Shown: positions 18,695-59,434, counted from the stretch's first letter. The stretch: 64,000 nucleotides of DNA from Acidobacteriota bacterium (GCA_024641665.1 JAHECP010000006.1:4541-68540), one strand, 5' to 3'. Notes: a model not told the origin generated them from the sequence alone. Translations and numbers: made by a program.

Positions 18695-18706
18695 CGACGC
18701 CTCACC

Positions 18707-19747: not shown

Positions 19748-19960
19748 ACCGGCGGCGGGCCCGGCGGTTCGAGGAGATTCAGCACGGTGCTTACACCACG
19801 CGTCAACCACCACCGGCCCGATTCGACCCAGCCGGCAGGCTGGCCGCCGGCCATCGGTGCGCTTCGACACGTGCCCGGCAGCCGACACGTGGTGCTGAGC
19901 CGCGTGTCGGTGTCGTGGTAGGCACGGCAGGGCTCGTTCCCGTGACGTCAGGGGGGATAC

Positions 19961-21493: not shown

Positions 21494-22471
21494 ATGTTCA
21501 GGATGCGATTTCTGATTGGAGCTATCGGACTTGTGCTGTTGTGCCCTGCGACCTCACCAGGACAATCGCTTGTGGCCGTCTCGGCCCGGGGCGAGGGGGC
21601 CGTCAAGCTCTACTCGCCGGTCCGCGACACTCTTCGCCTGGTCAAGTCCGTTCCTGCCGGGCGGCAGCCCGGCGAGATGTGTCTGGATCCCGAAGGGACG
21701 CACCTGTTCGTGGGAGAGGTTCCGGAAAAACAAGTAGGTGTGCTCGATCTGCAGAGCAAGACCATCGTCGCCACCATATCCGATCCCGGCATCGAGTCAC
21801 CGGACGGATGCGCCGTCAGCCCGGACGGAAGCAAGCTGTACGTCGTGGATAGGGAAGCCAACACCGTCTTCGTCTTCAATATCGCGTCCCGCCAGCTGAT
21901 CAAGAAGATTGCGGTGGGCCAAGAGCCAAGGCGTGCGCTGTTTTCACGCGACGGAAAGACAGTTATCGTCACCAGCGCCGAAGCCGCCACCCTCACTGTG
22001 ATCGACGCTTCGACCGATACGATCGTGCGCACCGTCAAGACCGGCCACGGACCTCAGGACCTCGCCTTTACGCCGGACGGCAAGTTACTGGTCGTCGGGC
22101 TCATCGACGATGACGCGGTCGGTTACTTCAATGCCAACACGTTGGAGCTCGAGCAGGAGGTTGGGACTGTCCAATCGCCGCAGCATGTCGTCCCCTCGCT
22201 GGATGGCCAGCTCTTGTTCGTCTCAGGCCATCTCCAAGGTGTCATCGGAGTGATGAACCTGCGCCCGAACAGCCGATTGGCGCGTCGTCTTGTCCAAACG
22301 ATTCCGGTCGGCACCAGGACCCAGTGGGGCCTGACCATGAGCGCGGACGGCAAGTACTTGTACTCAACACAGCCGGCCGATGACGCCCTTTCAGTCATCG
22401 ATCTGCAGTTGATGAAAGCTGTCTTCACCTTGCACGTTGCGGGGGCCGGTGCAGTGATCTTCTGCAAGTGA
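21494..22471 (+). CDS. Secreted YVTN-type beta-propeller protein, paralog P1
   Basis: AGGAGG RBS + ATG 21494. Signal-like MFRMRFLIGAIGLVLLCPATSPGQS. Repeated ..PDG..LYV..N.V.V(I)D.. blades. Colinear with the 31251 and 47775 genes. GC is lower (about 52-62%) than the surroundings. Confidence 0.8.
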   Translation: MFRMRFLIGAIGLVLLCPATSPGQSLVAVSARGEGAVKLYSPVRDTLRLVKSVPAGRQPGEMCLDPEGTHLFVGEVPEKQVGVLDLQSKTIVATISDPGIESPDGCAVSPDGSKLYVVDREANTVFVFNIASRQLIKKIAVGQEPRRALFSRDGKTVIVTSAEAATLTVIDASTDTIVRTVKTGHGPQDLAFTPDGKLLVVGLIDDDAVGYFNANTLELEQEVGTVQSPQHVVPSLDGQLLFVSGHLQGVIGVMNLRPNSRLARRLVQTIPVGTRTQWGLTMSADGKYLYSTQPADDALSVIDLQLMKAVFTLHVAGAGAVIFCK

Positions 22472-22489
22472 AGAGATCTCCATTTGGCA

Positions 22490-22531
22490 CGGAAGAAGCG
22501 GTTCGATCTTGGCCCATTGCGCGTCGGTCAG
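22490..22531 (-). mobile_element. Stub of an IS5-family (IS427/IS1031-like) transposase N-terminus
   Basis: Minus-strand translation gives RLTDAQWAKIEPLLP. This matches the conserved ..LTDxxWxxIEPLLP.. opening of IS5-family DDE transposases (from memory). Homology stops after about 15 codons, where it abuts the end of the P1 gene. Confidence 0.4.
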
Positions 22532-22635
22532 ACGGGTGCTGCGCCTGGCCTGGCAGTGCAACGACGCTGGGTGATCGAGACGGCGACGCTCGAGGTGATC
22601 GACAACTTGCGGTGACGGAAGCGTGGAGGTAACAG

Positions 22636-25455
22636 GTGAGGGCCCGAATCTTCGTCTTGCTGCTTTGCTTGATCTCGTTGCCGACACGCGATGTTGGAAC
22701 GGCGCGCCAGGGCGGTTCCGCATCGGTCGTCGCGCTGACGAACGCGACAGTCGTCGTCGGCAACGGCCAGGTGCTCCCGCGGGCGACCGTGGTCGTGCAC
22801 GACGGGATCATTCGCGCGGTCGGTGCCAAGGTGGCGATCCCGGCTGGCGCGAGGGTGGTGAACCTGGGTGGCGCCTACCTGTACCCGGGGCTGATCGACG
22901 CGCTGACGGTTCAGGTTTTCAAGGATGCGCCGGCCGGGCACGCTGCGCAGGCTGGTTCGACGTCGCGCGGACAGCCCGCTGCTTCCGACCAGGCAGGTCC
23001 TGACGGCGGCGGCTTCTTCGCGCACGTCGAGGCAGCCGACCAGCTCGATCCCGACCCGGCCGCCTGGGCGGCGTGGCGTGACGCGGGCATCCTGACGCTG
23101 CACGTGTCGCCGGACCGTGGCATCTTCGAGGGACAGACGGCGGTGGTGACGCTCGAGGGCGAGGCCGCGACGCCGAGGGTCATCCGCCGGGCCGTTGGGA
23201 TGCGGATTGCGCTGCGCACCCTCAGTGCGCCTCGACGGGCGGGCTTTCCGGTTCCGGGCGGGCTGTATCCCGGCTCGCTCCTCAGCGTCTGGTCCCATAT
23301 CGAGCAGACCGTGCTCGACGCGCAGCACGCCCTGAAGGCCGCCGCCTTCCCCGCGACCGACCTCGCCTCGATCGGGTACGCGGAGCCCGTGCGCGCACTC
23401 GAGGCCCTGCGCCCCGTCGCGGAAGGGACGATGCCGCTCATCGTTCCGGCGCGCGCCGAGCGCGAGGTGCAGCGGGTCCTCGACCTCGCGGACCGGTTTC
23501 ACGTCCGGTGCATGATCGCCGGCGGCTACGAGGCCGCGCAGCACGCCGAGGCGTTGAAGGCCGCGAAGCTGCCGGTCATCGTCAGCCTGAATTTCCCGCC
23601 CAGGCCAGCGAGCCGGCTGGGCAAGCAGGCGCAATTCGTCACGACCGCCGCAGCGGCCGCGCCCGAGGAAACCTACCTGGAGATGCGGGCCCGGGTCCAT
23701 GCGCCGGAAGCGGCCGGGGAGCTGGCGCGCGCGGGCGTGCCGTTCGCGTTTGCATCGGACGGGTTGAAGACGGGTGACGCGTTCCTGGCGAACCTCCGGC
23801 GGGCGGTGGCGAACGGCCTGTCGAAGGAGGCCGCCATCCGCGCGGCAACACTGTCGGCGGCGGAGATCCTCGGCGTGGCGCAGCAGGTGGGCAGCATCGA
23901 GCCCGGCAAGATCGCGAACCTGATCGTCGCCGACGGCGATCTGCTCGATGAGGGCACCCGCCTGACGGCGGTCTACGTCGGCGGCCACGAACGGACGGCC
24001 GCGACGACGGAGTCCGGAGCGGCATCGGTCCCGACGCCGGTTCCCGGGCGGCGTGCGGCCGCACGCGCGCCGGCCGCCCCCCCGTTCGTCTCGCGCGTGA
24101 TGGCCGCCGGCACCGACCCGTACTTCCCGCCGCCGGTCGCGTCCGAGGAGCTTCTCATCAGGAACGCCACGGTCATGACGGCGACGCACGGCACGCTCGA
24201 GCACACGTCGATTCTGGTCCGTCATGGCAAGATCGCCGCGATTGGCGCCAACCTCGAGGCCGGACCGCAGGCGCGGATCGTCGATGCGACCGGCAAGTGG
24301 GTGACGCCCGGCTTCATCGACACCCACAACCACATCGGGAGCGACGCGCACAACGACGCCACGATTGCCGTGACGTCGATGACGAAGCTCGAAGACGTCA
24401 TCGATCCGACCGAGATCGGGGTGTACCGGGCGCTGAGCGGCGGTGTGACGATGGTGCACACCATGCACGGCAGCGTCAACCCCATTGGCGGGCAGGGCGT
24501 TCTGATCAAGACGGCGTGGGGGAAACCCGCCAAGGACCTGGTCGTGCCCGGAGCGACACCGACCCTCAAGATGGCGCTCGGGACCAACCCGAAGGGCCGC
24601 GGCACCCAGCCGGCGGAGGGCGTGGCGCGGCGGTACCCCGCGAGCCGCATGGGCGTCATGGACGTCATCCGAAGCGCGCTCGTGGCGGCGAGGGACTACA
24701 AGCTGCAGTGGGATCTCTACGAGAAGGCCCGCGACGGGCACCTCGGCCTGCTGCCCCCGCGGCGCGATCTCACGCTCGAACCCCTCGTGGAGGTGTTGAC
24801 GGGCACGCGCATGATCACGGTCCACGCGTACCAGGCGGACGAGATGCTGACCCTGATGCGGCTGGCCGACGAGTTCGGCTTCAAGGTCGGCCGCTTCGAG
24901 CATGCCGCCGAGGGGTACAAGATCGCGCCCGAGCTGGCGCGACACGGTGCGGGCGTTGCCGCCTTCGATCTGCTGGGCACCAAGGTCGAATCGTGGGATG
25001 CCATTCCCCAGGGGATCGCCGTCCTCGTCAAGGCGGGCGTGTCGGTGTCGATCGGCACCGATGGCTGGGAAGTCGCGCACATGGTGCACGAGGCGGCCCA
25101 GACGCTCGAGTACGGGTTGACGCCCGATCAGGCCCTGGCGCTCATCACGATCAACGCCGCGAAGCAGCACGGCGTCGATCGGACAGTCGGTTCCATCGAC
25201 GAAGGCAAGGACGCCAACCTGGTGATCTTCGACAAGTACCCGTTCAGCGTGTACGCCACGCCGGAGCAGGTGTACATCGACGGGCAGTTGTATTTCAGCC
25301 GCGCACGCGACCGGGAACGGGCGAAGGCGATCGCGGCCGAGAAGGAGCGGTTGTCCGCGCTCGACGAGGTGCCGGCTGCGCCCGGCGTGACGACCGGGTC
25401 GCCGGCCGTCCGCCCGCAATCGCCCGCAGGAAGGCAGGTACCCAGTGGCCGCTAG
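22636..25455 (+). CDS. Two-domain amidohydrolase: N-terminal domain lacking the HxH metal motif + C-terminal catalytic-type domain
   Basis: GTG start with a GGAGG RBS and a signal-like N-terminus. Domain 1: ..YLYPGLIDALTVQVF.. (no HxH) ..GSIEPGKIANLIVADGD... Domain 2: ..WVTPGFIDTHNHIGSD.. (HxH present) ..SIGTDGW..GSIDEGKDANLVIFD... Confidence 0.8.
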   Translation: MRARIFVLLLCLISLPTRDVGTARQGGSASVVALTNATVVVGNGQVLPRATVVVHDGIIRAVGAKVAIPAGARVVNLGGAYLYPGLIDALTVQVFKDAPAGHAAQAGSTSRGQPAASDQAGPDGGGFFAHVEAADQLDPDPAAWAAWRDAGILTLHVSPDRGIFEGQTAVVTLEGEAATPRVIRRAVGMRIALRTLSAPRRAGFPVPGGLYPGSLLSVWSHIEQTVLDAQHALKAAAFPATDLASIGYAEPVRALEALRPVAEGTMPLIVPARAEREVQRVLDLADRFHVRCMIAGGYEAAQHAEALKAAKLPVIVSLNFPPRPASRLGKQAQFVTTAAAAAPEETYLEMRARVHAPEAAGELARAGVPFAFASDGLKTGDAFLANLRRAVANGLSKEAAIRAATLSAAEILGVAQQVGSIEPGKIANLIVADGDLLDEGTRLTAVYVGGHERTAATTESGAASVPTPVPGRRAAARAPAAPPFVSRVMAAGTDPYFPPPVASEELLIRNATVMTATHGTLEHTSILVRHGKIAAIGANLEAGPQARIVDATGKWVTPGFIDTHNHIGSDAHNDATIAVTSMTKLEDVIDPTEIGVYRALSGGVTMVHTMHGSVNPIGGQGVLIKTAWGKPAKDLVVPGATPTLKMALGTNPKGRGTQPAEGVARRYPASRMGVMDVIRSALVAARDYKLQWDLYEKARDGHLGLLPPRRDLTLEPLVEVLTGTRMITVHAYQADEMLTLMRLADEFGFKVGRFEHAAEGYKIAPELARHGAGVAAFDLLGTKVESWDAIPQGIAVLVKAGVSVSIGTDGWEVAHMVHEAAQTLEYGLTPDQALALITINAAKQHGVDRTVGSIDEGKDANLVIFDKYPFSVYATPEQVYIDGQLYFSRARDRERAKAIAAEKERLSALDEVPAAPGVTTGSPAVRPQSPAGRQVPSGR

Positions 25456-26764
25456 ATCACGACGTCAATCGGGGCGCCGCGCGCCCATCGTCTGCGCCGC
25501 GGTTGGCGCGGCGCTCCTCGTCTTCACCGATGTCGCCTCCGCCCAGCAGGCCTACGCGATCAAAGACGCGCGCATCGTCACCGTGTCGGGACCGGTGATC
25601 GAGAAGGGGACGGTCGTGATCCGCGACGGCCGCATCGCCGATGTCGGCGCGGCCGTCACCGTGCCAGCCGAGGCGACGGTCATCGACGGCCGGGGGCTGA
25701 CGGTGTACCCCGGGCTGTTCGACGCCTTCACCAGCGTCGGCCTCACCGAGATCCCCGGCCTCTGGGAATCGGACGACTTCAGCGACATCGGTGACTTCAC
25801 GCCGCAGCTCATGACGTTCGACGCGTTCCACAGCGCCAGCGCGTTTGTCGCGATCGCACGATCGGTCGGCATTCTGCACGTGGTGAGCAGTCCCAGTAGC
25901 GGCATCGTGGCCGGCCAGGGCGCCGTGATGGCGCTCGGCGGGTGGACGGCCGACGAGATGGTGGTGGCCAAGCATGGCCCGATGTTCGTCGACTTTCCGA
26001 AGCTGCTCAACTACGACGCGCCGGCCTACACGCGCCGCCGCCACCCGTATGCCGAGGTGAAGGACTACGCGACGAAGATGCGCGAGCTGACAGAGTTCTT
26101 CGCCGCTGCGCGCAAGTACATGGACGCCAGGGACCAGGCCGGGGCCGAGGCTCCCGCCCCGACGGCCGAGGAGGCGCCGTACGAGGCGATGATCCCGGTG
26201 CTCAAAGGGCGGCAACCGGTGTTCATCGAGGTGCAGAGCGAACAGGACATCAGAAAGGCGGTCGGGTTCGCGCGCGAACAGAAGCTGAACTACGTGCTGG
26301 TCGGGGCCGAAGACGCGCCGCTCCTCGCCGACTTCCTGAAGGAGCAGGACGCCCGCGTGATTGTCGGTCCTCCCGGCGACATGCCGATTCGCCCCGACGA
26401 CCCGGTCGACACGGTGTGCCGCGCCGCGGCCGTGCTGCACGAGCACGGGGTCGGGATTGCCTTCGGAACGGTAAGTGGAACGGCCAACGACCTCAGCCTG
26501 CGCCACCAGGTCGGCATGGCGGTGGCGTGCGGCCTCCCGCGCGACGTGGCGCTGCGCAGCGTCACGCTGACGCCCGCCGAATTCGTCGGCGTCGCCGGTG
26601 AGGTGGGCAGCATCGAGACGGGCAAGCGGGCGGACCTCGTGCTGACCGACGGCGACATCTTCGAGTACGGAACCCACATCATCCAGACCTTCGTCAACGG
26701 GAAACAGGCGGGCGTGGAATCGCGCTACACGGACCTGTACGAGAAGTACAAGGACAGGAAATAG
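25445..26764 (+). CDS. Amidohydrolase-fold protein lacking the HxH motif (probable non-catalytic partner)
   Basis: ..LTVYPGLFDAFTSVGLTEI.. replaces the PGxxDxHxH motif. C-terminal ..GSIETGKRADLVLTDGD... GTG start overlaps the upstream stop by 11 nt. Signal-like N-terminus. Confidence 0.78.
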   Translation: MAARSRRQSGRRAPIVCAAVGAALLVFTDVASAQQAYAIKDARIVTVSGPVIEKGTVVIRDGRIADVGAAVTVPAEATVIDGRGLTVYPGLFDAFTSVGLTEIPGLWESDDFSDIGDFTPQLMTFDAFHSASAFVAIARSVGILHVVSSPSSGIVAGQGAVMALGGWTADEMVVAKHGPMFVDFPKLLNYDAPAYTRRRHPYAEVKDYATKMRELTEFFAAARKYMDARDQAGAEAPAPTAEEAPYEAMIPVLKGRQPVFIEVQSEQDIRKAVGFAREQKLNYVLVGAEDAPLLADFLKEQDARVIVGPPGDMPIRPDDPVDTVCRAAAVLHEHGVGIAFGTVSGTANDLSLRHQVGMAVACGLPRDVALRSVTLTPAEFVGVAGEVGSIETGKRADLVLTDGDIFEYGTHIIQTFVNGKQAGVESRYTDLYEKYKDRK

Positions 26765-26798
26765 AGAACGAGGGACATCGGGTCCTGGAGATGGGCAC

Positions 26799-28202
26799 AT
26801 GAAACGCCGGCCCTGTCCGCTGCGGGTCGTCGCCCTGCTCGTGGGCGCCGGTCTTGCCACCCAGACGTTCGCCCAGGCGCCGCCGTTCGAGCCGGCCCAG
26901 AGCCCGCGCCTCGCCGTGCTGCAAAGGGACGTGCAGAGCGGCGCCGCCGATGCGGTTGCGACCTTCTGGAAGGAGATGGAGGCCCGGGGCACGCCCCTCG
27001 TCGAGCCGGTGCCGGACGACGATCAGCACGTGATCGCCACCTTCCTGTGGCGCGGGAAGCCGGAGACGACGAGCGTGCTCGCCGTCATCCCGTTCCGGTC
27101 CTCGCGCAGCCTCGTCGAGAACCTGATGGCGCAGGTGCCCGGCACCGATGTCTGGTACCGCACGCTCGAGATCCGCAGCGACCTGCGCTTCACGTACTCG
27201 TTCCTGCCCGACCCGCTCGCGGCGATGACCGCCCGCGTGTCGCTTCCCGATCTGATGCGCCTGCAGCAGTTCGATCCCCTCAACCGGAAGACGTTTCGCT
27301 CGCCGCCCGATCCCGAGGATCCCGACATGAACCGGATCGAGGGGTCCATCGCGGAGATGCCGAAGGCCTCAGCACAGCCCTGGATTGCGAGACAGGAAGG
27401 CATTCCGGACGGCCGGGTCGAGATGCACCGGTTCAAGAGCGCCGTTCTCGGCAACGAGCGGCGCATCTGGATCTACACGCCACCCGGATACTCGCCGACG
27501 GCGAACCAGCTCTATCGCATGGTGATCTGCTTCGACGGGCGCGCGTACCTGGACAGCGCGGGAATCCCGACGCCCACGATCCTCGACAACCTCCTCGCCG
27601 CGCGCAAGATCCCGCCAATCGTGGCGGTGCTCGTCGAGAACCCGTGGACGTCGCGGCAGAAGGAGCTGAGCAACCACCAGGCCTTCGTGGACTTCCTGGC
27701 CACGGAGCTCCTGCCGTGGGTGCGCCAGGCGTATCACGTCACGACCGATCCCACGAAGACGATCGTGTGCGGTCTGAGCGCTGGGGGGCTGACGGCGGGC
27801 TACGTGGCGTTCAAGCGGCCCGACCTGTTCGGCAACGTGCTCGCCCAGTCGGGCGCGTTCTGGCGGGGCAACGAAGGCGACGAAGTGAACCACGAATGGC
27901 TGACGCAGCAGTTCCAGGCGAGCCCGGTGCTGCCCATTCACTTCTGCATCCAGGCGGGGTTCCTCGAGCAGGGCGTTCCCTCGCCGAACAACGGACCGTC
28001 GCTGCCGCTCGCGGCGCGGCACCTGCGGGACGTCTTGGTGGCCAAGGGTTATCCGGTCGTCGAGTATCGCGACGTGCCCGGCGGGCACGAGCCCCTCACC
28101 TGGCGCGGCACGCTCTCCGACGGGCTGCTGTTCCTGCTCCAGCACGAATCGACGCGAGGCACGACGCCCGGGGCCGTCTCTCCGGCTACCGCGACGCGGT
28201 AG
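26799..28202 (+). CDS. Enterochelin-esterase(Fes)-like putative esterase with N-terminal Ig-like domain
   Basis: Signal peptide MKRRPCPLRVVALLVGAGLATQTFAQA. ..RRIWIYTPPGY..ICFDG..Y.. and GLSAGG nucleophile elbow. Same overall layout as Fes/PF00756-type esterases (recollection). Confidence 0.72.
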   Translation: MKRRPCPLRVVALLVGAGLATQTFAQAPPFEPAQSPRLAVLQRDVQSGAADAVATFWKEMEARGTPLVEPVPDDDQHVIATFLWRGKPETTSVLAVIPFRSSRSLVENLMAQVPGTDVWYRTLEIRSDLRFTYSFLPDPLAAMTARVSLPDLMRLQQFDPLNRKTFRSPPDPEDPDMNRIEGSIAEMPKASAQPWIARQEGIPDGRVEMHRFKSAVLGNERRIWIYTPPGYSPTANQLYRMVICFDGRAYLDSAGIPTPTILDNLLAARKIPPIVAVLVENPWTSRQKELSNHQAFVDFLATELLPWVRQAYHVTTDPTKTIVCGLSAGGLTAGYVAFKRPDLFGNVLAQSGAFWRGNEGDEVNHEWLTQQFQASPVLPIHFCIQAGFLEQGVPSPNNGPSLPLAARHLRDVLVAKGYPVVEYRDVPGGHEPLTWRGTLSDGLLFLLQHESTRGTTPGAVSPATATR

Positions 28203-31104: not shown

Positions 31105-31165
31105 GGGTTCGCTCCGGCTCGGAACACGCGCTCCGGGGGGGCAGCCCCGCGGAGCCACTGGGCGA

Positions 31166-31198
31166 TTGACAAACATAGATATTGTATATGAAATATCC
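31166..31198. promoter_or_regulatory. AT-rich box copy 3 (TTGACAaacatagatattgtataTGAAATatcc) in the divergent M14 / propeller-P2 intergenic region
   Basis: TTGACA 31166-31171, a 17-nt spacer, then TGAAAT 31189-31194. Core TTGTATATGAAATATCC lies 52 nt before ATG 31251. The reverse strand reads CATATACAATATCTAT towards the M14 gene. Confidence 0.55.
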
Positions 31199-31250
31199 TA
31201 ACGTACGCGTCCGATCGGGCACCGCCGGATACCCACATCGGAAGGGAACG

Positions 31251-32240: not shown

Positions 32241-32261
32241 CGGCTGTCGAGGGAGTGGACC

Positions 32262-33713: not shown

Positions 33714-33727
33714 CGAGCGACGCGGCC

Positions 33728-35089: not shown

Positions 35090-35097
35090 GAACCGCC

Positions 35098-38058: not shown

Positions 38059-38096
38059 CCGATGGCCACCGTCGAACGGTGTGAACGGTGCCGAAG

Positions 38097-40157: not shown

Positions 40158-40204
40158 GAGAAGAAGATTCTGAGGCAGTGGTCGAAGGAAACAGGAGGCA
40201 ACCG

Positions 40205-41656
40205 ATGCATCGCGTTGGGCTGCTGCTGGTGGTGGCGCTCCTTGCGCAGGCGGCCGGCTCGGGAGTCGTGCGCGTGACACACACGTTTCCGAGCCTGAGC
40301 GGGCCGAACCCTGCGGACGCCGGCTCGACGTCCGCGGATCTGTCAGGGGGCGTCAGCGACAGACACCTCGTCACGTTCATCAACGGCGGGTTCTCGGTAC
40401 TGGCGAAGGCCGACGGCAGGGAGGTACAGCCTCATCAGACCCAGATGCAGTTCTGGACGGCGGCCTTCGAAAACGCAGGCGACCAGGTGATGGGCAAACC
40501 GTACGATCCCCGCATCTCGTACGACCCGATGACGCGGCGCTGGTTCGCTGCGGCCAACGAGAACATCAATGGCCTGAGCCACATGATTCTGTTCGCCGTC
40601 TCGGAGGATGCCAACCCGACCCACCGGTGGAAGGCCGTCCGCTACGAGGCGCCCGTCTCGGTGGACAATTGCAAGCTCGCAATCGACCGCTTCGGCGTGT
40701 ATTCCACCGCGCTTGCCGGCAGCCGCGACCCCGCCGAGATCCCGCACGTTCCCGTGATCGCGATCCCGAAGGAGGATCTGCTCTGGAAAGGGGACGGGAA
40801 GCCGTCGCTCGAGCACCTGAACCTGTTCGAGGTGATTGGCGTGCCACGGATGAGCGACCGCAAGTACAACGGGACCGAAGGCATGGTGCCGGCGTACGAC
40901 TGGGATGCGCACAAGAGCAGGTCCACGCCGGTGTATTACGTGAACCGGTTCCGGAAGGAGGTCGACGGCGAAACCTTCCTGCAAATCCGCAAGCTGACGT
41001 GGATCTCGCCCGCCAAGGCCACGTTCAGCGACGCGGCGGAGATCGGCCTCGGCGAACACTACAGCGTCCAGCCGACATCGCTCGGCGTCCAGCCTCCGCT
41101 CGGCGACAATCTCCACTCACCGGGCATCCGTGCCGGCGAAGCGCGCATCGTCAATGCCATCGTTCGCAACGGGAGGCTGTACACCATTGCCGCCGCGCAG
41201 ATGGGGGAGCGAACGGGCGCGTTCTGGGTCGAGATCGACCTGGCGACGATGAAACTCCTCCAGCACGGCACGCTCGCCGATCCCGACCTGGACATCCTGT
41301 TCCCGTCGATCAACGTCGATCGCAACGGCAACATCGGCATCGGCATGTCCGCCACGTCCGCCACGGTGTATCCATCGGCGTACGTCACAGGACGCCTCAA
41401 GAGCGACCCGCCGAACACGCTGCGGCCGCTGGTGCGCGCTGTCGAAGGAAAGTACGTGCACCTGCGGAAGAGGACGGACGTGACGAAGCCGGACCAGGGC
41501 GAGAGCTGGAGCGACTACTCCATGGTCATCCTCGATCCCGTCGATCAGACGACGTTCTGGACGCTGCAGGAAGCGACGACCAATCCGACGATGCCGCAGG
41601 AACAGAACGCGGATCGTTACGGCACGCACTGGGTGACGTGGCGGGTGGGAAAGTGA
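40205..41656 (+). CDS. Secreted protein of unknown function (483 aa), embedded in the peptidase operon
   Basis: ATG 40205 and signal-like MHRVGLLLVVALLAQAAG. No catalytic motif recognised. C-terminal ..GESWSDYSMVILDPVDQTTFWTLQE.. resembles a (R)WGDYS..DP.D..FW signature I recall from uncharacterised propeller-like proteins (unverified). Confidence 0.6.
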   Translation: MHRVGLLLVVALLAQAAGSGVVRVTHTFPSLSGPNPADAGSTSADLSGGVSDRHLVTFINGGFSVLAKADGREVQPHQTQMQFWTAAFENAGDQVMGKPYDPRISYDPMTRRWFAAANENINGLSHMILFAVSEDANPTHRWKAVRYEAPVSVDNCKLAIDRFGVYSTALAGSRDPAEIPHVPVIAIPKEDLLWKGDGKPSLEHLNLFEVIGVPRMSDRKYNGTEGMVPAYDWDAHKSRSTPVYYVNRFRKEVDGETFLQIRKLTWISPAKATFSDAAEIGLGEHYSVQPTSLGVQPPLGDNLHSPGIRAGEARIVNAIVRNGRLYTIAAAQMGERTGAFWVEIDLATMKLLQHGTLADPDLDILFPSINVDRNGNIGIGMSATSATVYPSAYVTGRLKSDPPNTLRPLVRAVEGKYVHLRKRTDVTKPDQGESWSDYSMVILDPVDQTTFWTLQEATTNPTMPQEQNADRYGTHWVTWRVGK

Positions 41657-43257: not shown

Positions 43258-43282
43258 ACCGGGTCCCGTGCTGCGGCGGACG

Positions 43283-43696
43283 GCCGGCGCGGATGAACTT
43301 CCTCGCGCGGACGTGCGGGCCCTTCAGGTCGATGATCGAGATCTTCTGTTCGAGCACGGTCAGCACGAACGCGGGCTGGCCGTCGCGGGACACCTCGAGC
43401 CGCTGCGGCGAGCCGCCGGCGCCAATCGTCAGCTGCACGGCCTTGGTGTCGGCGTCGATGCACGAGACCGTATCGTCATCGACGTTCGTGACGAGCACGG
43501 TCTTGTGATCCAGCAGGAAGAGCGGCGTTCTCGGGGCGTGACCGCCCGAGGTGAAGTGGTCGAGGACGGTGTCGGTCGCCGCGTCGAGGATGCTGATGTG
43601 GTTGCCCTCCTCGGCCGTCACGTAGTAGCGGCGCGCATCGGGCGTGAAGACCACCCGCCACGGCTCCTTACCCATGTCCGTGAGGTGCTTGACCAC
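43283..43696 (-). pseudogene. Remnant (about 3 blades, ~138 aa) of a fourth YVTN beta-propeller paralog, truncated at both ends
   Basis: Within ORF 43022-43927 (-): GKEPWRVVFTPDARRYYVTAEEGNHISILDAATDTVLDHFTSGGHAPRTPLFLLDHKTVLVTNVDDDTVSCIDADTKAVQLTIGAGGSPQRLEVSRDGQPAFVLTVLEQKISIIDL. This aligns to the middle blades of P2/P3. There is no signal peptide and no PDGLAFRQ-type C-terminus. Its ends run into the flanking + strand genes. Confidence 0.55.
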
Positions 43697-45839
43697 GCGT
43701 GACCGACAGCTGGCCCTCGGCGTGTTCCTTGTCATGGCCTTCGTTGTGGCGCCCGGCCGCGCCCAGGAACGCGAGGACCGCACGCTGCTCTCCTGGGCCC
43801 AGATGCACGCCATCGTCGACGAGGCGTCGGGCGAGCGCGCCATGCAGACGGTCCAGATGATCGCGCCCTTTCCCGGGCTGCGCCCGGCGTCCGAATACAC
43901 CGGACACTTCCACGAGAGTGACGCCATGGCGCGGCTGGCGCGCGAGTACGGCTTCAGCGACGTCCAGATTGAGACGTATCCCCTGCCGGCACCGCTGTGG
44001 CAGGCGTCCGAGGCCCAGCTCTGGATGGTGGAGCCGCAGGCGAAGAAGCTCTACGACGCGCACGACGTCAACCTCGCGGTCGTCGCAGGCAGCGACACGG
44101 GTGACCTGACCGCGGATGTCGCCGACGTGGGCACGGGGCAGCGCGCGAAGGAGTACGCCGGGATCGACGTGAGCGGCAAGATCGTGCTGGGATCCGGACC
44201 GGCGCGCGGCCTGCAGCAGCTCGGAGTGTTCGAGCGAGGAGCGGTCGGTCTCATCAGCTACGACTCGCATCGGCCCAACGCGTATCCGGACGAAGTGCTC
44301 GATCAGGAGCACATCAGGCCCGGGCCGAGCGGCAAGAGCGCCGGCTTTGCGTGGGCGATCTCGCCGCGGGTCGCGCGCGAGCTGCTGGACGGCCTGCACG
44401 GCGGGCGCCGGGTGCGGCTGCGGTCGGTCGTCAAGGCCGAATCGTTCCCCGGCAAGCACGAGATGGTGCACGCGATGATTCCGGGCGACGGCAGCTCGCC
44501 GCAGGCGATCGTGGTGTCGGCCCACCTGTTCGAGCAGCACCTGAAGCAAGGCGCGAACGACGATGCATCGGGATGTGCCGTGACCCTCGAGATGGGCCGC
44601 ACGCTCCTCCGGCTCGTGGCCGAAGGGAAGCTCCCCAGGCCCCGGCGCGACATTCACTTCACGTGGATCGACGAGGTGCGCGGCACGCGCGAGTGGCTGA
44701 AGCGCCACGACGACGTGCGCCAGCGGTTGATCGCGGACCTGAACTTCGACCAGGTCGGCAACGGCCTGTTGCGGAGCTCGAGCCTCTACGTCCTGCACCG
44801 CACGCCCGACACCCTGTCCAGCTACCTCAACGACGTGGGCGCCAGCTTCCTCGAGTTCGTGGACCACACGAACCGGGAGCGGGCCGTCTACCGCACTCAC
44901 GGCTTCGGCTTCTCCATGCCGGTGGTCGCGCCGACCGGAACCCACGACGACCCGTTCATCACGGCCGTCGCCCCCTACTGGCCACCAAGCGACCACCGCG
45001 TGTACCTCGATCAGGGCATCCCTGCTGTGCTGTTCAACGACTGGCCGGACATGTGGTACCACTCGTCCTACGACCGTCCGGACCGAGGCATCCTCGATCC
45101 GACGCAGATGAAACGCGCGGCCGTGGTCGGCGCGGCCTTCGTGAGTCTGCTGGCGTCGGCCGATGACGAGCTTGCCACCCGTGCGATGTTCGAGTCGCTC
45201 GGGCGCGGCTCGGAGCGGATGGCCGCGGCGGTTGGCCGGGGACTCGGTTTCATGGCGGACGCCCAGGGGCCCCTGGTCGCGACGGCCTACAAGGAGGCCC
45301 TCAACGCGCTGCGGCACCAGATGGCCGTCGAGCGCGACGTCGTCAAGTCCGCGGCGGTGCTGTTTGCCGATCGGGCCGCGGGCGAACGCGCGGTCGCGAG
45401 CGTCCTGCCGCTCGTCGAAGCCCGCGCGGCGGCACTCCAGAACGAGCTGGCTGCGGCGTTTCGGGTGAAGGCCGAACAGTACCATCTCGCGCCGACCGAA
45501 CCACCGCCCTCGGCCGCCGAGACGCTGGCGGCCCGCCAGGTGCCCGAACGCACGAAGCCTCTGCAGCCACCGGGCGTGATTCAGGCGGCGATCGCCAAGC
45601 TGCCCCCAGCCGATGAAGCAGCTGTTGCCGCGGCGCTGGCGAGGATGCCGGCGTACGAGAGCTTCAACTACGAGTTCAATGCGCTCCTCCAGCAGAAGGA
45701 GACGATCCTCGAGATCCGTGACTTCCTGTCCGGCGAGTTCGATCCCCTGCCGCTTGCCGATCTCCTGGGCTACCTGCACGCTCAGGAGAAGCTCGGGTTC
45801 ATGCGCATCGTGGAGCGTCCGGGACCGAAAGGCCGGTGA
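43674..45839 (+). CDS. M28-like peptidase-fold protein (PA domain + aminopeptidase-like domain + C-terminal helical domain)
   Basis: Signal-like MSVRCLTTRDRQLALGVFLVMAFVVAPGRAQ. ..VVSAHLFEQHLKQGANDDASGCAVTLEM.. carries the GAxDDxSG metal-site motif. ..WYHSSYD... The start is uncertain (GTG 43644 alternative). Confidence 0.72.
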   Translation: MSVRCLTTRDRQLALGVFLVMAFVVAPGRAQEREDRTLLSWAQMHAIVDEASGERAMQTVQMIAPFPGLRPASEYTGHFHESDAMARLAREYGFSDVQIETYPLPAPLWQASEAQLWMVEPQAKKLYDAHDVNLAVVAGSDTGDLTADVADVGTGQRAKEYAGIDVSGKIVLGSGPARGLQQLGVFERGAVGLISYDSHRPNAYPDEVLDQEHIRPGPSGKSAGFAWAISPRVARELLDGLHGGRRVRLRSVVKAESFPGKHEMVHAMIPGDGSSPQAIVVSAHLFEQHLKQGANDDASGCAVTLEMGRTLLRLVAEGKLPRPRRDIHFTWIDEVRGTREWLKRHDDVRQRLIADLNFDQVGNGLLRSSSLYVLHRTPDTLSSYLNDVGASFLEFVDHTNRERAVYRTHGFGFSMPVVAPTGTHDDPFITAVAPYWPPSDHRVYLDQGIPAVLFNDWPDMWYHSSYDRPDRGILDPTQMKRAAVVGAAFVSLLASADDELATRAMFESLGRGSERMAAAVGRGLGFMADAQGPLVATAYKEALNALRHQMAVERDVVKSAAVLFADRAAGERAVASVLPLVEARAAALQNELAAAFRVKAEQYHLAPTEPPPSAAETLAARQVPERTKPLQPPGVIQAAIAKLPPADEAAVAAALARMPAYESFNYEFNALLQQKETILEIRDFLSGEFDPLPLADLLGYLHAQEKLGFMRIVERPGPKGR

Positions 45840-45961
45840 GGCCGCCGACGGGACAGGCATTCACGCATGTTGGCCGAGGCGCTGGCTGGCGACGATGACC
45901 AAGCAAGAGAGCGGAAGGCGCACGGTACCTCTTCGAGGTCGGGATGGCGTGGCGGCCGGAA

Positions 45962-45987
45962 GGGATATGATATACTTTGCGCATATG
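45962..45987 (+). promoter_or_regulatory. AT-rich box copy 4 (GGGATATGATATACTTTGCGCATATG) overlapping the GntR start; TATACT 45971-45976 lies 8 nt before ATG 45985 (near-leaderless)
   Basis: The reverse complement AAGTATATCATATCCC matches copy 5 (TAGTATATAATATCCC) at 14/16 positions. Confidence 0.5.
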
Positions 45988-46680
45988 AGGCCAGGCGGCA
46001 ACTCTCTCATTGAGCTCGACCCCACTGTCGCGCTACCTACGGCACTGCCCGATCGCATCTACGCCACGCTCAAGCACCGCATCCTCACGGGCTCGATCCT
46101 GCCATCGGCGCGCATCATCGAAAAGGAACTCTGCACCGAGATGCACGTCTCACGAACGCCGCTCAGGGAGGCCCTGAACCGCCTCGCGCTGGAAGGCCTG
46201 GTGCAGATCGTCCCCTACCGGGGCTACGTCGTGGCCCCGCTGACCGTTCAGGGGTTCCGGGAACTCTGCGAGGTGCGACGTATCCTCGAGGCCGAGACGG
46301 CCGCGCTGGCGGCCGAGCGGGCGACCGATGCCGACATCGCGCACTTGGCCTCGCTGGCCGAGCTGCGGTACCGGCGGGAGGACCGCCGGACCTACGGCAA
46401 GTACCTCCGGGCCAACAGCGCGTTCCATCAGGCGCTGGTGCGATCGTCCGGCAACACCCGGCTCGAAGGCATTGTGATGCTGGCACTTGATCAACACCAG
46501 CGCCCGCTGTATCTCGGCCTGGGAGTAGGGGTCGATGGAGCGGCGTCGACCGGCGAGCATCGGGATATCGTCGATGCGATCCGGGAGCGGAAGCCGCAGC
46601 GCGCGCGTGAGGTGATGATCCAACATCTGAGGCGCGCGGAGGATCGCATCGCGAGCGCCCTGCAGGCCGCTGGCTACTGA
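45985..46680 (+). CDS. GntR-family transcriptional regulator, FadR subfamily (FCD C-terminal domain)
   Basis: ..PDRIYATLKHRILTGSILPSARIIEKELCTEMHVSRTPLREALNRLALEGLVQIVPYRGYVVAPL.. wHTH, followed by an all-helical ..FHQALVRSSGN..EHRDIVDAI.. FCD-type domain. An alternative ATG lies at 45967. Confidence 0.85.
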   Translation: MRPGGNSLIELDPTVALPTALPDRIYATLKHRILTGSILPSARIIEKELCTEMHVSRTPLREALNRLALEGLVQIVPYRGYVVAPLTVQGFRELCEVRRILEAETAALAAERATDADIAHLASLAELRYRREDRRTYGKYLRANSAFHQALVRSSGNTRLEGIVMLALDQHQRPLYLGLGVGVDGAASTGEHRDIVDAIRERKPQRAREVMIQHLRRAEDRIASALQAAGY

Positions 46681-46728
46681 CGCGGCGGATCCGTGTCCGG
46701 CTTGTGGTGCCGGGCCGGTGGACTCGAA

Positions 46729-46748
46729 GGGCCGCCGTACGGCGGCCC
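46729..46748. terminator. Perfect GC hairpin GGGCCGCC-GTAC-GGCGGCCC between convergent GntR and propeller P3 genes
   Basis: 8-bp GC stem and 4-nt loop read directly from the sequence. Sits between stop codons at 46680 (+) and 46792 (-). No U-tract. Confidence 0.6.
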
Positions 46749-46791
46749 TCCTCGTGCAAGAACCTCCCGCGACACCCGTTGGACCGCCCGC

Positions 46792-47775
46792 CTACTTGCG
46801 GAACGCGATCCCGTTTGGATCCTTCTCCGTCGGCACCGTGTTGACCACCTTCAACGTGGCCGTGTCGATCACCGTGATGTTGTTGTCCGCATTGCTCGAC
46901 GCGTAGACGAACGCCCCGTCATCGCTGATGTCGAGCCCCCACGGGGCCTTGCCAACCGGAACGATGACGTTCTTGTCGTGCTTCTGCAGGTCTCCGATCG
47001 CGTACACGGTGGCCGTAATGCGTGAGAGCACGAAGGTCGGCGAGCCTTTCGGGTGGCAGACGATCCGCTGGGGTGACGCGGGGACACCCTGAATGCGCGT
47101 GACCTGCTCGGTGACCGCGTCGATGTAATAGAGGGTGTCGTCCTCGACCGCGCCCGCCAGCAGCAGCGTGCCGTCCGGCGTGAACGTCAGGCCTCCCCGG
47201 ACCTCGTTGCCGACCTTGATCCGCTTGATCACCTTTTCGGAGGCGGCGTCGATGACCGCGATCTCGGGCGTCTTGTTGCAGCCGGCGTAGATCTTCTTCC
47301 CATCCGGCGAGAAGGTCAGGCGTCGCGGCGTATCGAGCGCAAGCGGGATCTCGTTGATCACCTTGTTGGTCCTGGTATCGATCACGACGGCGGAGGCGCT
47401 GGCCGCGCCCACGACGTACAGCTTCCTGCCGTCGGGGCTGACGACTCCACCGTCCGGGTACTTGATCCGGGGGTCGGTGATGGTGGTGGTCACGGCCATC
47501 TTGTTCAGGTCGATGACCGAGATCGAGTTGTCGTCCGCGTTGGACACATAGGCCGTGTTGCCGTCGGGTGACAGGCACACCTCGCGTGGCGTCTTGCCGA
47601 CCGGGATGGATTTCAGCGGCGTCAAGTCCCTGCCGGCGACCTTGTAGATCGTCACGGTCTGCGGGGCGCGATTGACGACGACGAGCAGCTTGTCCCGCAC
47701 GGCGGGCCGGGCGTGAACGACCGACGCCAAGACAAGGGCGGCCGAGAGGACGGACATCACGCGCGAGGTTCTCAT
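46792..47775 (-). CDS. Secreted YVTN-type beta-propeller protein, paralog P3
   Basis: ATG 47775 and signal MRTSRVMSVLSAALVLASVVHA. ..LKSIPVGKTPREVCLSPDGNTAYVSN..SISVIDL.., ..DPRIKYPDGGVVSPDGRKLYVV.., C-terminal ..NITVIDTATLKVVNTVPTEKDPNGIAFRK. Confidence 0.82.
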   Translation of the reverse strand: MRTSRVMSVLSAALVLASVVHARPAVRDKLLVVVNRAPQTVTIYKVAGRDLTPLKSIPVGKTPREVCLSPDGNTAYVSNADDNSISVIDLNKMAVTTTITDPRIKYPDGGVVSPDGRKLYVVGAASASAVVIDTRTNKVINEIPLALDTPRRLTFSPDGKKIYAGCNKTPEIAVIDAASEKVIKRIKVGNEVRGGLTFTPDGTLLLAGAVEDDTLYYIDAVTEQVTRIQGVPASPQRIVCHPKGSPTFVLSRITATVYAIGDLQKHDKNVIVPVGKAPWGLDISDDGAFVYASSNADNNITVIDTATLKVVNTVPTEKDPNGIAFRK

Positions 47776-47895: not shown

Positions 47896-47915
47896 CATAT
47901 AGTATATAATATCCC
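47896..47915. promoter_or_regulatory. AT-rich box copy 5 (CATATAGTATATAATATCCC) in the divergent P3 / M28 intergenic region
   Basis: Contains a perfect TATAAT (47905-47910), 72 nt before ATG 47988. The reverse strand reads GGGATATTATATACTATATG towards P3. Confidence 0.55.
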
Positions 47916-49682: not shown

Positions 49683-49738
49683 CGGTCGCTGGCGGGGTCC
49701 GTGCCACTACGGGCGCAGATGCCCGGCGAGGTGCTTTC

Positions 49739-51901: not shown

Positions 51902-51924
51902 CCGCCGGCCGAAGGGAGCACCAG

Positions 51925-59109: not shown

Positions 59110-59333
59110 GGCAGTACTCCTTGAACCGGGTTGTCGGGGAGATCGAGGTTCGGACGCGTAGGCCAGCGGGTTGCCGGGCAGCGTGCGGGCCGGGCAGCCC
59201 ACGGCCACGAACAGGCGTGAGGGCGTGAGGGCGCGAGGCGGAGGGACGATCGAGTCGCCATAACCCGCCAGGGAGGCCAGGGAGTTGACAGGAACCGGCG
59301 CGATCGGGGGAACGGGCCTCCGGTGCTCGTCCG

Positions 59334-59364
59334 GAATACTATATATAATATAGGCCACTGTCAA
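59334..59364 (-). promoter_or_regulatory. AT-rich box copy 6; textbook TTGACA-N17-TAGTAT on the minus strand, ~225 nt upstream of the receptor ATG
   Basis: Minus strand reads TTGACAgtggcctatattatataTAGTATtcc (-35 at 59364-59359, -10 at 59341-59336). The + strand reads GAATACTATATATAATATAGG. Confidence 0.6.
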
Positions 59365-59434
59365 GCCCGGGTGCCAACTCCCTTCCGGGGCCCGCCACGT
59401 GCCCCCGGCACCCGGAAACCGGCCGGTGCGCGCC

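Follow-up and report, generated by a model that had tools for sequence, protein, structure and literature searches.

The window, a stretch of 64,000 nucleotides of acidobacterial DNA, carries three intact genes for exported seven-bladed YVTN propellers: P1 (21494..22471, + strand, 325 aa), recognized from its translation and its Pfam and NCBIfam hits, P2 (31251..32240, + strand, 329 aa), from its translation, an AF2 model and a Foldseek search, and P3 (46792..47775, - strand, 327 aa), from its translation and its orthologues. An earlier sequence-only reading had named these open reading frames and described them as paralogues that align block by block, and so they do: the translations are stop-free and 325-329 aa long, both sequence blocks cited for the three proteins are found in them verbatim, and an alignment of all three is colinear over the full length. 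In BLASTP comparisons, P2 and P3 are 41% identical over 330 aa (E 1e-87), and P1 is 33% identical both to P2 (E 6e-58) and to P3 (E 8e-53), a likeness which by these scores lies well above chance level. Orthologues of each paralogue are found at 75-85% identity on related metagenome contigs, as compared with 33-41% between the paralogues; P1, P2, P3 and a relic, P4, are assigned by sequence to four anciently diverged orthogroups, of which that of P3 is the largest, with orthologues at 49-100% identity. The contigs with the 75-85% orthologues look Vicinamibacteria-like, and the subfamily is so far almost confined to such acidobacterial contigs. P1, which has a GGAGG 8 nt 5' of its ATG, is a compositional outlier (GC3 of 0.74 vs 0.887±0.025 for the island, z -5.8); it is probably a recent acquisition.

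The relic, a fourth propeller copy absent from the earlier three-paralogue account, is a piece of 139 codons corresponding to blades 3-5 (43259..43675, - strand) and sits in the 386-nt gap from g12 to the M28 peptidase gene g13. It matches the YNCE model (1.6e-8) and, by tblastn, residues 140-270 of P1-P3 (E 4e-17), and it is 70% identical to residues 150-281 of an intact member of the fourth orthogroup, P', in the related locus L099, where P' and the beginning of the g13 orthologue, again an M28 gene, overlap by 4 nt. A 301-aa open reading frame at 43022-43927 (- strand) was considered as the full gene and rejected, as it is propeller-like only in the central 139 codons; at either end it runs antisense to g12 and g13, its third-codon positions coinciding with those of g13.

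All three intact proteins pass the cut-off of the YVTN repeat model TIGR02276 (93.8 bits for P1, 171.9 for P2 and 142.5 for P3, cut-off 27.85) and also match the Pfam models Lactonase and YNCE. The AF2 model of P2 (pLDDT 95.3) predicts 28 strands in seven blades, each of about 42 aa, which are joined by minimal loops and closed by a 1+3 velcro, and the colinear alignment suggests the same seven-bladed fold for P1 and P3. In Foldseek, the best match of the P2 model is 1L0Q (TM 0.84, rmsd 1.8 Å, 33% identity), which is also the best sequence match (profile E 8e-72); hydrazine synthase beta, QHNDH beta, BtuG and YbhE are further near structures. The structure search that the sequence-only reading had proposed thus returns a closed propeller for P2, nearest to 1L0Q, and from it comes no catalytic assignment. 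The signal peptides that had been claimed for P1, P2 and P3 were judged by eye and are there in all three, each with a positively charged n-region and a hydrophobic core. In homologues across the groups the cleavage site is mostly A-x-A, cut before a Q (SPase-I type), and in the P2 model residues 1-30 lie outside the propeller as a helix of low confidence. An ILAC motif in P2 resembles a lipobox, but a lipoprotein was rejected, as the Cys is absent from the 84% orthologue; because this Cys is not conserved, the propellers are predicted not to be lipoproteins. P1-P4 make up a compact subfamily of YVTN beta-propellers that are Sec-exported, single-domain and seven-bladed.

The genes among which they lie form a conserved, heavily shuffled set for periplasmic peptide breakdown. 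Its hydrolases are an amidohydrolase pair of the Xaa-Pro-dipeptidase type, an S12 enzyme with a beta-lactamase fold and peptidases of the M28, S9 and M14 families; besides these, the island encodes a secreted orphan protein of 480 aa, a BNR/sortilin protein, a CysK-like PLP enzyme and a TonB-dependent-like barrel; enterochelin-esterase-like and PepSY_TM genes are likewise present in such islands. The amidohydrolase pair (g3 and g4; 22636..26764, + strand), identified by Pfam, comprises a protein of 939 aa with tandem domains and one of 439 aa; the pair is of the Xaa-Pro-dipeptidase (Caulobacter) type, with NF051886 as its best NCBIfam match, under the cut-off. An M14 carboxypeptidase of 996 aa (g6, Pfam; 28186..31176, - strand) diverges from P2, and directly behind P2 lies g7 (32262..33713, + strand), a beta-lactamase-fold serine hydrolase (S12, AmpH- or D-aminopeptidase-like; Pfam Beta-lactamase 2.8e-72) whose NCBIfam matches to AmpH, class C and D-aminopeptidase all stay under the cut-off. 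The orphan g11 (40205..41656, + strand, 483 aa) belongs to a family for which no Pfam, NCBIfam or PDB match was obtained, even by profile search at permissive E-values; its single-sequence AF2 model had a pLDDT of 30 and was discarded. Further along follow the M28 peptidase g13 (Pfam M28; about 720 aa; 43674..45839, + strand), divergent from the P4 relic, a GntR/FCD transcription regulator (g14, Pfam GntR and FCD; 45985..46680, + strand) and g15-g17 (47988..52899, + strand), which encode an M28+PA aminopeptidase, an S9 peptidase with a PD40 propeller and the CysK-like PLP enzyme (Pfam, with NCBIfam for g17). Two S9 enzymes of the island, g10 and g16, have a fused propeller. At the island edge, 8.6 kb from P3 within the window, lies a TonB-dependent-receptor-like outer-membrane barrel (56365..59469, - strand; Pfam CarboxypepD_reg and OMP_b-brl_4). 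An Rfam scan of the full window gave no match.

Each propeller had been ascribed to a transcription unit. P2 does head an operon, being the first gene after the divergent promoter region, with six more genes behind it on the same strand, spaced at most 47 nt apart, and P3 is indeed divergent from the M28+PA/S9 operon. P1 lies on the same strand as the gene at 19961, in whose operon it had been placed as second gene, but its flanking gaps are 210 nt and 164 nt, and an uninformative scan predicted no promoter or terminator around it; membership is plausible. The AT box said to be shared by P3 and the M28/S9 operon is a significant palindrome that recurs at island promoters. It reads GTATATAATATCC (47902..47914), between P3 and the M28+PA operon, and further copies lie at 19545-19557, 19734-19746, 31184-31198 (between g6 and P2), 45963-45975, 59341-59353 and 61158-61172, with the palindromic consensus GKATAT-N-ATATMC. 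A search with GKATATNATATMC, allowing at most two mismatches, returned these 7 matches as opposed to 0.44 expected, a number reached in none of 100 shuffles, and 6 of the 7 are at promoters. The box at 59341-59353 is at the 5' end of the gene for the TonB-dependent-like barrel, and the box is kept at equivalent promoters in five related loci (L001, L006, L094, L091 and L003). The copy at 45963-45975 is perfect and ends 9 nt before the ATG of g14 at 45985, and it is the position of this one box that makes g14 a candidate AT-box binder; no GntR orthologues were found in the related loci fetched. We propose that the AT box may be the operator of this regulator and that the propellers would therefore be co-expressed with the hydrolases.

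Is the neighbourhood of the propellers preserved in related genomes? We compared 26 contexts of the subfamily with two sets of controls, 70 distant YVTN genes and 10 distant YVTN genes from other Acidobacteriota. The control loci came from a scan of species-representative genomes, with at least 70 distant YVTN genes at no more than 48% identity among the matches listed; a metagenome scan with the P3-group alignment gave eight loci, six of them useful. A hydrolase, be it an amidohydrolase, a beta-lactamase-fold enzyme or a peptidase, is directly adjacent in 15 of the 26 contexts vs 1 of the 70 distant YVTN genes listed (Fisher p 8e-10) and none of the 10 from other Acidobacteriota (p 0.002), and in 22/26 the propeller directly adjoins a recurrent island gene. 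The subfamily is thus non-randomly linked to peptidase genes, as had been surmised, and to amidohydrolase genes as well. Since about half of all genes inside such islands encode hydrolases, this adjacency reflects membership of the island and is by itself no sign of a specific partner; the counts are also inflated, because the contexts come from a narrow lineage with shared ancestry, which is mitigated by extensive rearrangement.

What did not hold is a dedicated one-to-one pairing of each propeller with a hydrolase operon. The amidohydrolase pair behind P1 has an 80% nt orthologous counterpart that follows the P3 orthologue in relatives, P1 orthologues elsewhere (74-81% identity) are without hydrolase neighbours, and P3-type genes adjoin different island genes in different genomes. 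The association is with the island and not with one fixed partner. Only P2 and the beta-lactamase-fold gene appear to act as a fixed cassette: its DNA is 84.5% identical to L001 10000-12443, an 84% orthologue of g7 stands directly 3' of the P2 orthologue there, with an 87% orthologue of g6 in the same divergent position, and in L011 a beta-lactamase-fold gene adjoins a P2-type gene. Orthologues of the g3/g4 pair, the commonest neighbour of P3-type propellers, adjoin propellers in six loci (L004, L006, L011, L092, L095 and L099), and in two of these, L004 and L092, this cassette is preceded by a P3 orthologue where it is preceded by P1 here, an in-situ displacement with DNA homology that sets in precisely at the start codon of the amidohydrolase. 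Among the recurrent neighbours, the g11 family is the most specific: its homologues (51-68% identity) directly adjoin propellers in L101, L004 (two copies), L100 and L003 and are one gene from a propeller in L095. Orthologues of g13 (63%) are found in L101 and, directly after P', in L099, and an 85% orthologue of g17 is directly upstream of an 85% P3 orthologue in L091. Several propeller paralogues are clustered per island in L006, L011, L099, L101 and the L001/L004 contig. No member of the subfamily was seen fused to a hydrolase among the homologues listed; a profile search for fusions in a library of 1.84 billion representatives was uninformative, as giant multi-propeller proteins dominate the summed score. 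In the literature we found no paper that links YVTN propellers to peptidase clusters.

The propellers could be ordinary exported proteins carried along in an island prone to recombination, without any functional link, their adjacency to hydrolases stemming from the shared ancestry of a few genomes. Such a coincidence would agree with the unrelated contexts of the P1 orthologues, with the lack of a directly adjacent hydrolase in L100, L093 and the P0004 contig, with the origin of all informative contigs in one lineage and with the huge size of the YVTN family (333,427 representatives at E<=1e-3 in a profile search). We regard it as rather improbable, however, as the association survives extensive reordering and reorientation of genes, another paralogue has taken over the propeller slot, the promoters share an operator-like box, the taxonomically near controls are without adjacent hydrolases, and start and stop codons overlap with those of island genes, by 4 nt between P' and the M28 or a PALP gene and by 1 nt between a propeller and a g11-like gene.

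What, then, might the propellers do? A ring of residues predicted to line the central pocket of the top face is conserved (Glu66, Asp/Glu109, Arg153, Asp213, Gln236 and Arg237 in P2 numbering). Blade-specific residues where strand A begins, and in the B-C loop of blade 4, do not vary within groups, and group-specific residues occupy positions 65, 152, 194, 281 and 323 of the same face. The alignment of the P1, P2 and P3 groups contains no His, Cys or Ser conserved across all three. The lack of conserved His or Cys, together with scores of 15-21 bits in partial matches to NF038015 (AztD zinc metallochaperone, cut-off 400), led us to drop an AztD-like zinc chaperone serving the Zn hydrolases. 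From these data no catalytic assignment is possible, and our best guess is an accessory for binding or scaffolding in the periplasm.

An enzyme of the PF10282 kind, a periplasmic lactonase, lyase or cycloisomerase similar to PpgL, YbhE, CMLE or Vgb, is a possibility that we consider unlikely, though less so than the other alternatives. It would open a bond beyond the reach of the neighbouring peptidases, such as the ester or lactone of a depsipeptide, or one in a cyclic peptide or a siderophore-like compound, and the enterochelin-esterase-like and PepSY_TM genes of the islands would suit it. The Arg/Glu/Asp/Gln ring lies at the central pocket of the face where propeller enzymes keep their active sites, YbhE and 6-phosphogluconolactonase structures rank third and fourth in Foldseek (TM 0.80-0.82), and PF10282 is matched above its gathering score of 21.7 (60-96 bits), but only through partial repeat stretches. 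P2 also matches Vgb_lyase (PF24684) weakly, at 31.3 bits vs a gathering score of 50, and the Pfam scan gave no such match for P1 or P3. The 6-phosphogluconolactonase equivalog PRK11028 is far missed (29-40 vs 370 bits) and identity to YbhE is just 17%. Moreover, no His or metal-ligand set is common to the three groups, the very short loops leave little space for a substrate-shaping pocket, and four diverged paralogues in one island suit binders of varied specificity better than a single chemistry.

Our preferred reading, to which we give a little less than an even chance, is that the propellers are non-catalytic periplasmic binding modules, co-expressed with the island hydrolases under the AT box and the GntR/FCD regulator. 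Non-catalytic seven-bladed propellers are known as periplasmic subunits or binders in QHNDH beta, the methylamine dehydrogenase heavy chain and BtuG. The pocket would capture peptide-like substrates or dock on partner hydrolases, so handing over or gating substrate in the periplasm, and residues 65, 152, 194, 281 and 323 might tune the paralogues to different ligands or partners. Against such a role, the Arg/Glu/Asp-rich pocket fits catalysis equally well, as in the metal-independent PF10282 lactonases and cycloisomerases, and the P1 orthologues of other loci are not beside hydrolases.

Binding could also serve other ends. Like YncE beside the TonB-dependent receptor YncD, or BtuG with BtuB, the propellers might shuttle imported oligopeptides or another nutrient for an outer-membrane transporter, here the TonB-dependent-like barrel, and for PepSY_TM proteins. 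The barrel gene at the island edge has an AT box, genes of its type are directly adjacent to a propeller only in L101 (P'), one gene away in L096 and near one on the P0135 contig, PepSY_TM genes occur in L006, L010, L096 and L101, BtuG structures match at TM 0.72-0.76, and TonB-dependent receptors are a top neighbour family of distant YVTN genes (5/128 among those listed). We nevertheless think a shuttle improbable, for only 2 of the 26 contexts have a transporter gene directly beside the propeller, far below hydrolases, the propellers have no lipobox, unlike BtuG, identity to YncE and BtuG is 12-18%, and with 64-83 bits they stay below the cut-off of 400 for the YncE equivalog NF052280. More remote still is a tight-binding inhibitor or immunity protein that caps the co-expressed periplasmic hydrolases and shields the cell's own peptidoglycan and proteins, in the manner of BLIP-II, a seven-bladed propeller that inhibits beta-lactamases. 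The cassette of P2 with a g7-type enzyme is kept, g7-type enzymes are related to D-Ala-D-Ala peptidases, and the top face is diversified among paralogues. The blades of BLIP-II are of a different, RCC1-like type, however, and it is absent from the top 50 fold matches; propellers also adjoin cytoplasmic enzymes (PALP) and many unrelated hydrolase classes, and the neighbour genes bear no sign of toxicity. We hold an inhibitor to be very improbable.

Stand-alone exported propellers of the YVTN/YncE type are among the commonest bacterial proteins without assigned function, with more than 300,000 cluster representatives. In soil Acidobacteria, a subfamily of them is now tied to peptide hydrolases by neighbourhood, overlaps, paralogue replacement and an operator-like box, and g7, the amidohydrolase pair, the 700-aa M28 peptidase and the orphan g11 family offer themselves as candidate partners for experiments. 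If the propellers are partners in substrate capture or gating, part of a very large family would gain a role, and models of peptide and necromass degradation by abundant soil bacteria a further component; if they are enzymes, their surroundings suggest peptide-like substrates with an unusual bond.

Among known systems, the nearest in structure is 1L0Q, a surface-layer protein of Methanosarcina mazei from the same repeat family, exported and seven-bladed, with about 42 aa to a blade. It is, however, one domain of a multidomain archaeal surface protein, followed by PKD domains, whereas here we see a stand-alone protein of the bacterial periplasm in a catabolic island. In this respect PedA2 (TIGR03866, the PQQ-dependent catabolism-associated propeller) is more alike, a stand-alone exported seven-bladed YVTN propeller in a catabolic or uptake cluster, listed without assigned function in a table of ped-cluster genes (PMC12997753). 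In NCBIfam, all three proteins have TIGR03866 as their first or second hit, but they score 129.1 (P1), 181.1 (P2) and 135.0 bits (P3) vs 287.3, and the window genes scanned include neither a PQQ dehydrogenase nor an ABC transporter; the propellers have peptidases and amidohydrolases as neighbours instead. The PF10282 lactonases (1RI6, 6NAU) are of similar size and fold, and PpgL is also periplasmic, but beyond the low identity their equivalog is missed by about 330 bits and the context is unrelated to sugar-acid metabolism. BtuG differs as a surface lipoprotein with a lipobox Cys. Propellers of about 340 aa with seven blades that match P1-P3 are also found in 1JJU_B (QHNDH beta), the methylamine dehydrogenase heavy chain and 5C2V_B (hydrazine synthase beta), which are structural or substrate-channel partners of a periplasmic catabolic enzyme; here, the matches of P1, P2 and P3 to TIGR03907 and NF052340 miss all family cut-offs and the partner subunit genes are absent. 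Finally, a beta-propeller is combined with a peptidase in the S9 prolyl oligopeptidase/DPP family and in tricorn, where it gates the access of oligopeptides. Those propellers are of the PD40/DPPIV type and covalently fused to the catalytic domain, in contrast to the separate YVTN-type proteins of the island. Tentatively, and as a conjecture that is more likely to fail than to hold, we suggest that the propellers, possibly with the g11 family, could be an unrecognized class of free-standing periplasmic subunits that assist peptide-degrading hydrolases, a 'split' counterpart of the gating propellers of S9 peptidases and tricorn, interchangeable at a given cassette, tuned to substrates or partners and controlled by GntR/FCD via the AT box.

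Because the window has 68.7% G+C, its gene map was built from third-codon-position GC together with Pfam scans. The three open reading frames singled out in the sequence-only reading are real: translation yields 325 residues for P1 (21494-22471, plus strand), 329 for P2 (31251-32240, plus strand) and 327 for P3 (46792-47775, minus strand), both sequence blocks quoted there occur in the products, and a Shine-Dalgarno-like GGAGG, AGGAG or GGAAGGGA precedes each ATG by 7-8 nt. The colinearity claimed for the three proteins extends over their whole length, with 41% identity between P2 and P3 (E 1e-87) and 33% between P1 and either of them (E 1e-53 to 1e-58), and all pass the YVTN repeat model TIGR02276 as well as Pfam Lactonase (PF10282) and YNCE (PF21783). 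Most homologues in all three groups carry a Sec-type signal peptide with an A-x-A|Q-like end; since the cysteine in the signal peptide of P2 is not conserved, a lipoprotein reading is ruled out and the propellers are soluble exported proteins. An AlphaFold2 model of P2 with a 70-sequence alignment as input (pLDDT 95.3) comprises seven four-stranded blades, 28 strands in all, the last blade being closed by the C-terminal strand together with three N-terminal strands.

The count of three copies proved too low, as it missed a minus-strand reading frame with a YNCE match between the alpha/beta hydrolase g12 and the M28 peptidase g13. This fragment, P4 (43259-43675, minus strand), has 139 codons for three blades, a GC3 of 0.93 and no stop codon; in tblastn, 43289-43702 (minus strand) matches residues 140-270 of P1-P3 (E 4e-17), and the propeller-homologous part fills exactly the 386-nt gap from the g12 stop (43257) to the g13 start (43644/43674). 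Locus L099 has an intact propeller of 339 aa, P', which precedes a 63% orthologue of g13, the stop of the one overlapping the start of the other by 4 nt; the fragment matches the central part of P' at 70% identity. P4 is accordingly what remains, probably after a rearrangement, of a fourth orthogroup, reduced to three blades. A CATG palindrome (43673-43676) holds both the relic ATG and that of g13. A longer open reading frame, 43022-43927, was rejected as an antisense-frame artefact.

Housekeeping genes occupy positions 1-19,000 (LysR, GlmS, GlmU, DUF885, SerRS, an HMGL-like homocitrate/isopropylmalate synthase-family gene and one of the Iso_dh, isopropylmalate/isocitrate dehydrogenase, family). 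An island spans 19,961-59,469, its genes named from Pfam and NCBIfam matches. It opens with a class V aminotransferase, P1 and the amidohydrolases g3 (939 aa) and g4 (439 aa), both with a Caulobacter Xaa-Pro dipeptidase as best model, followed by an enterochelin-esterase-like protein, a 996-aa M14 carboxypeptidase on the minus strand, P2, and g7, an AmpH/D-aminopeptidase-like beta-lactamase-fold hydrolase. Next come a diaminobutyrate-type class III aminotransferase, a 986-aa BNR/sortilin protein, an S9 peptidase with PD40 repeats, the orphan secreted g11 (483 aa), g12, the P4 relic, g13 (about 720 aa), the GntR/FCD regulator g14 and P3. An M28+PA aminopeptidase, another S9 peptidase, a CysK-like PLP enzyme (PALP), two proteins without clear family and a TonB-dependent-like outer-membrane barrel complete the series. 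The large amidohydrolase g3 (22636-25455, plus strand) holds two amidohydrolase domains in tandem; in relatives a single-domain paralogue of about 435 aa always comes next after it, and the two are frequently present in duplicate (L004, L006). A 726-aa protein (54052-56232, minus strand) fuses an N-terminal part of about 350 residues, 53% identical to stand-alone proteins of 382/383 aa in L099 and L004 to which no family could be assigned, to a BD-FAE/alpha-beta-hydrolase esterase domain, a possible Rosetta-stone link. A 367-aa protein (52900-54003, plus strand) has no family and only a faint GH43-like match; its 50% orthologue lies within the L011 island (3691-4722).

How closely are the propellers tied to hydrolases? 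We compiled 26 contexts of the subfamily (members with 45% identity or more to P1, P2 or P3, or of the P' type) from the window, the contigs with listed homologues and the annotated scan loci. A peptidase, amidohydrolase or beta-lactamase-fold gene directly adjoins the propeller in 15 of them, and a recurrent island gene, that is, a hydrolase or a g11-like, PALP, BNR/sortilin, TonB-like barrel or PepSY_TM gene, in 22. For the control, the genes immediately beside 70 distant YVTN genes (25-38% identity) in species-representative genomes were taken, 128 in all, most commonly encoding periplasmic binding proteins, TonB-dependent receptors, DoxD and cytochromes c; a single one was homologous to any window hydrolase (Fisher's exact test, p = 8e-10; 4e-8 with the window left out). 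Among control loci from other Acidobacteriota, 0/10 had a hydrolase neighbour (p = 0.002). With 15/26 against 1/70 and 0/10, the subfamily as a whole is therefore not randomly distributed relative to peptidases, in agreement with the linkage first proposed. The barrel among the recurrent genes would suit a propeller that acts as a shuttle for an outer-membrane transporter, a role that we consider improbable.

The proposed pairing of each propeller with its own hydrolase operon, however, stands only as linkage to the island and not as a fixed partnership. The amidohydrolase pair is syntenic between the window and its close relative L004, with 80% DNA identity that sets in precisely with the large amidohydrolase's start codon, and the slot directly upstream is occupied by P1 in the window (21494-22471), by a P3 orthologue (81%) in L004 (10001-10981) and by a P3-type gene (70%) in L092 (79-1050). 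Given this exchange of occupants, the outlying GC3 of P1 (0.74 versus 0.887+-0.025 for the island; z = -5.8) and the absence of hydrolase neighbours next to its orthologues elsewhere (74-81%), P1 looks like a recent arrival in a position that in relatives belongs to a P3-type gene. Such orthologues would also accord with propellers that have no functional link to the island, which, set beside the association of the subfamily as a whole, seems to us a doubtful proposition. P3 in the window now faces the M28+PA/S9/PALP operon, and in L091 an 85% P3 orthologue directly follows an 85% orthologue of the window PALP gene. Elsewhere P3-type genes adjoin amidohydrolase pairs (L004, L006, L011, L092, L095, L099), g11-like genes (L004, L100, L101) or BNR/sortilin genes (L094, L095), and a g11-like gene adjoins a P2-type gene in L003. 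Overlapping stop and start codons link P' with M28 and with PALP, and a propeller with a g11-like gene, and several propeller paralogues share an island also in L006, L011, L099, L101 and the L001/L004 contig.

Only P2 and g7 behave as a fixed cassette, with 84.5% DNA identity to L001 that again sets in precisely with the start codon of P2; in L011, too, the P2-type gene has a beta-lactamase-fold gene as its neighbour, and in L003 one lies two genes off. A propeller accompanying such a fold might be a BLIP-II-like inhibitor, a reading to which we give very little credence.

The g11 family (window 40205-41656, plus strand; L101 6648-8105; L004 6936-9899; L100 9032-10084) comprises secreted proteins of about 480 aa with no match in Pfam, NCBIfam or PDB, and supplies the direct propeller neighbour in several genomes. 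Its members share an Asp-box-like motif, AVSxDxxPTHxWKA. A single-sequence AF2 model of g11 (pLDDT 30) was unusable.

Orthologues on other metagenome contigs are 84% identical to P2 (P0001), 76-85% to P3 (P0122-P0128) and 74-81% to P1 (P0229-P0234), and a 100% match to P3 is also found on a 79-kb NCBI contig. As the paralogues share only 33-41% compared with 75-85% between orthologues, the propeller duplications are much older than these genomes. A profile search of the broad YVTN family returned 333,427 cluster representatives at E<=1e-3; the specific subfamily is scarce in public collections, its few named relatives being Acidobacteria and Vicinamibacterales MAGs. In L007 (6910-7950) and L008 (3447-4448), the P1 orthologues, which lie outside hydrolase islands, have a second propeller-like gene upstream, whose very divergent 346-aa product gives a weak Beta-prop_THOC3 match and 25% identity to a P2-type protein.

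The AT box noticed earlier is a genuine palindrome, GKATAT-N(1-3)-ATATMC, with seven window matches at <=2 mismatches versus 0.44 expected, a number attained in 0/100 shuffles. Promoter regions account for six of them: 19545 and 19734 upstream of the 19961 operon, 31184 in the M14-P2 interval, 45963 ending 9 nt ahead of the g14 ATG, 47902 in the P3-M28+PA interval and 59341 at the 5' end of the barrel gene, while that at about 61158 is a variant with a three-nucleotide spacer. The 1.3 kb upstream of the 19961 operon (18616-19960), which gave no convincing gene and no Rfam match, contains two of these boxes plus a leader roughly 215 nt long. The box recurs at corresponding promoters of related loci: in L001 it separates M14 from the operon that includes the P2 orthologue, in L006 it lies directly upstream of a P2-type gene and in L094 between BNR/sortilin and a P3-type gene. 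Its GT...AC form is in keeping with GntR-family operators. The box is likely the operator of a peptide-catabolism regulon, and it is solely from its occurrence at g14's own gene that we infer binding by g14, no orthologue of which occurs in the fetched related loci.

What, then, do the propellers do? The nearest structure to the P2 fold is the M. mazei S-layer YVTN domain (TM 0.84); YbhE-type 6-phosphogluconolactonases (TM 0.80-0.82, 17% identity), hydrazine synthase beta, Lp49, NirN/NirF, BtuG, NosZ and QHNDH beta are also among the nearest, and none of these gives the propellers a function. P1, P2 and P3 widely miss every specific NCBIfam model. When conservation is mapped onto the strand/loop pattern of the P2 model, with spatial placement resting on propeller topology, the blade-specific residues are predicted on the top face, at the strand A openings of each blade and in the blade 4 B-C loop, and are nearly invariant within each orthogroup. 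Glu66, Asp/Glu109, Arg153, Asp213, Gln236 and Arg237 (P2 numbering) are common to all three groups, positions 65, 152, 194, 281 and 323 differ between them, and none of the residues that all three conserve is a His, Cys or Ser. The pattern indicates a putative functional central pocket with group-specific tuning, which fits a binding site as well as a metal-independent active site. An enzyme of the lactonase/lyase kind, for which the Lactonase match and the YbhE-type structures could be cited and against which the missed specific models count, is rather unlikely in our judgement. A non-catalytic accessory that binds a ligand or partner could well be the answer, at not quite even chances. The step from gene-set membership to function is one we infer; the membership itself, as exported components of a conserved and probably GntR-controlled periplasmic peptide-degradation gene set, we hold with good confidence.

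Our literature search retrieved no paper tying the YVTN family to peptidase clusters. The fold and the repeat family are already well known, as are exported YVTN propellers of unknown function in catabolic clusters, for instance PedA2, listed in the ped cluster without assigned function (PMC12997753). To these known systems the present case adds a well-documented genomic association and concrete candidate partners for the propellers.
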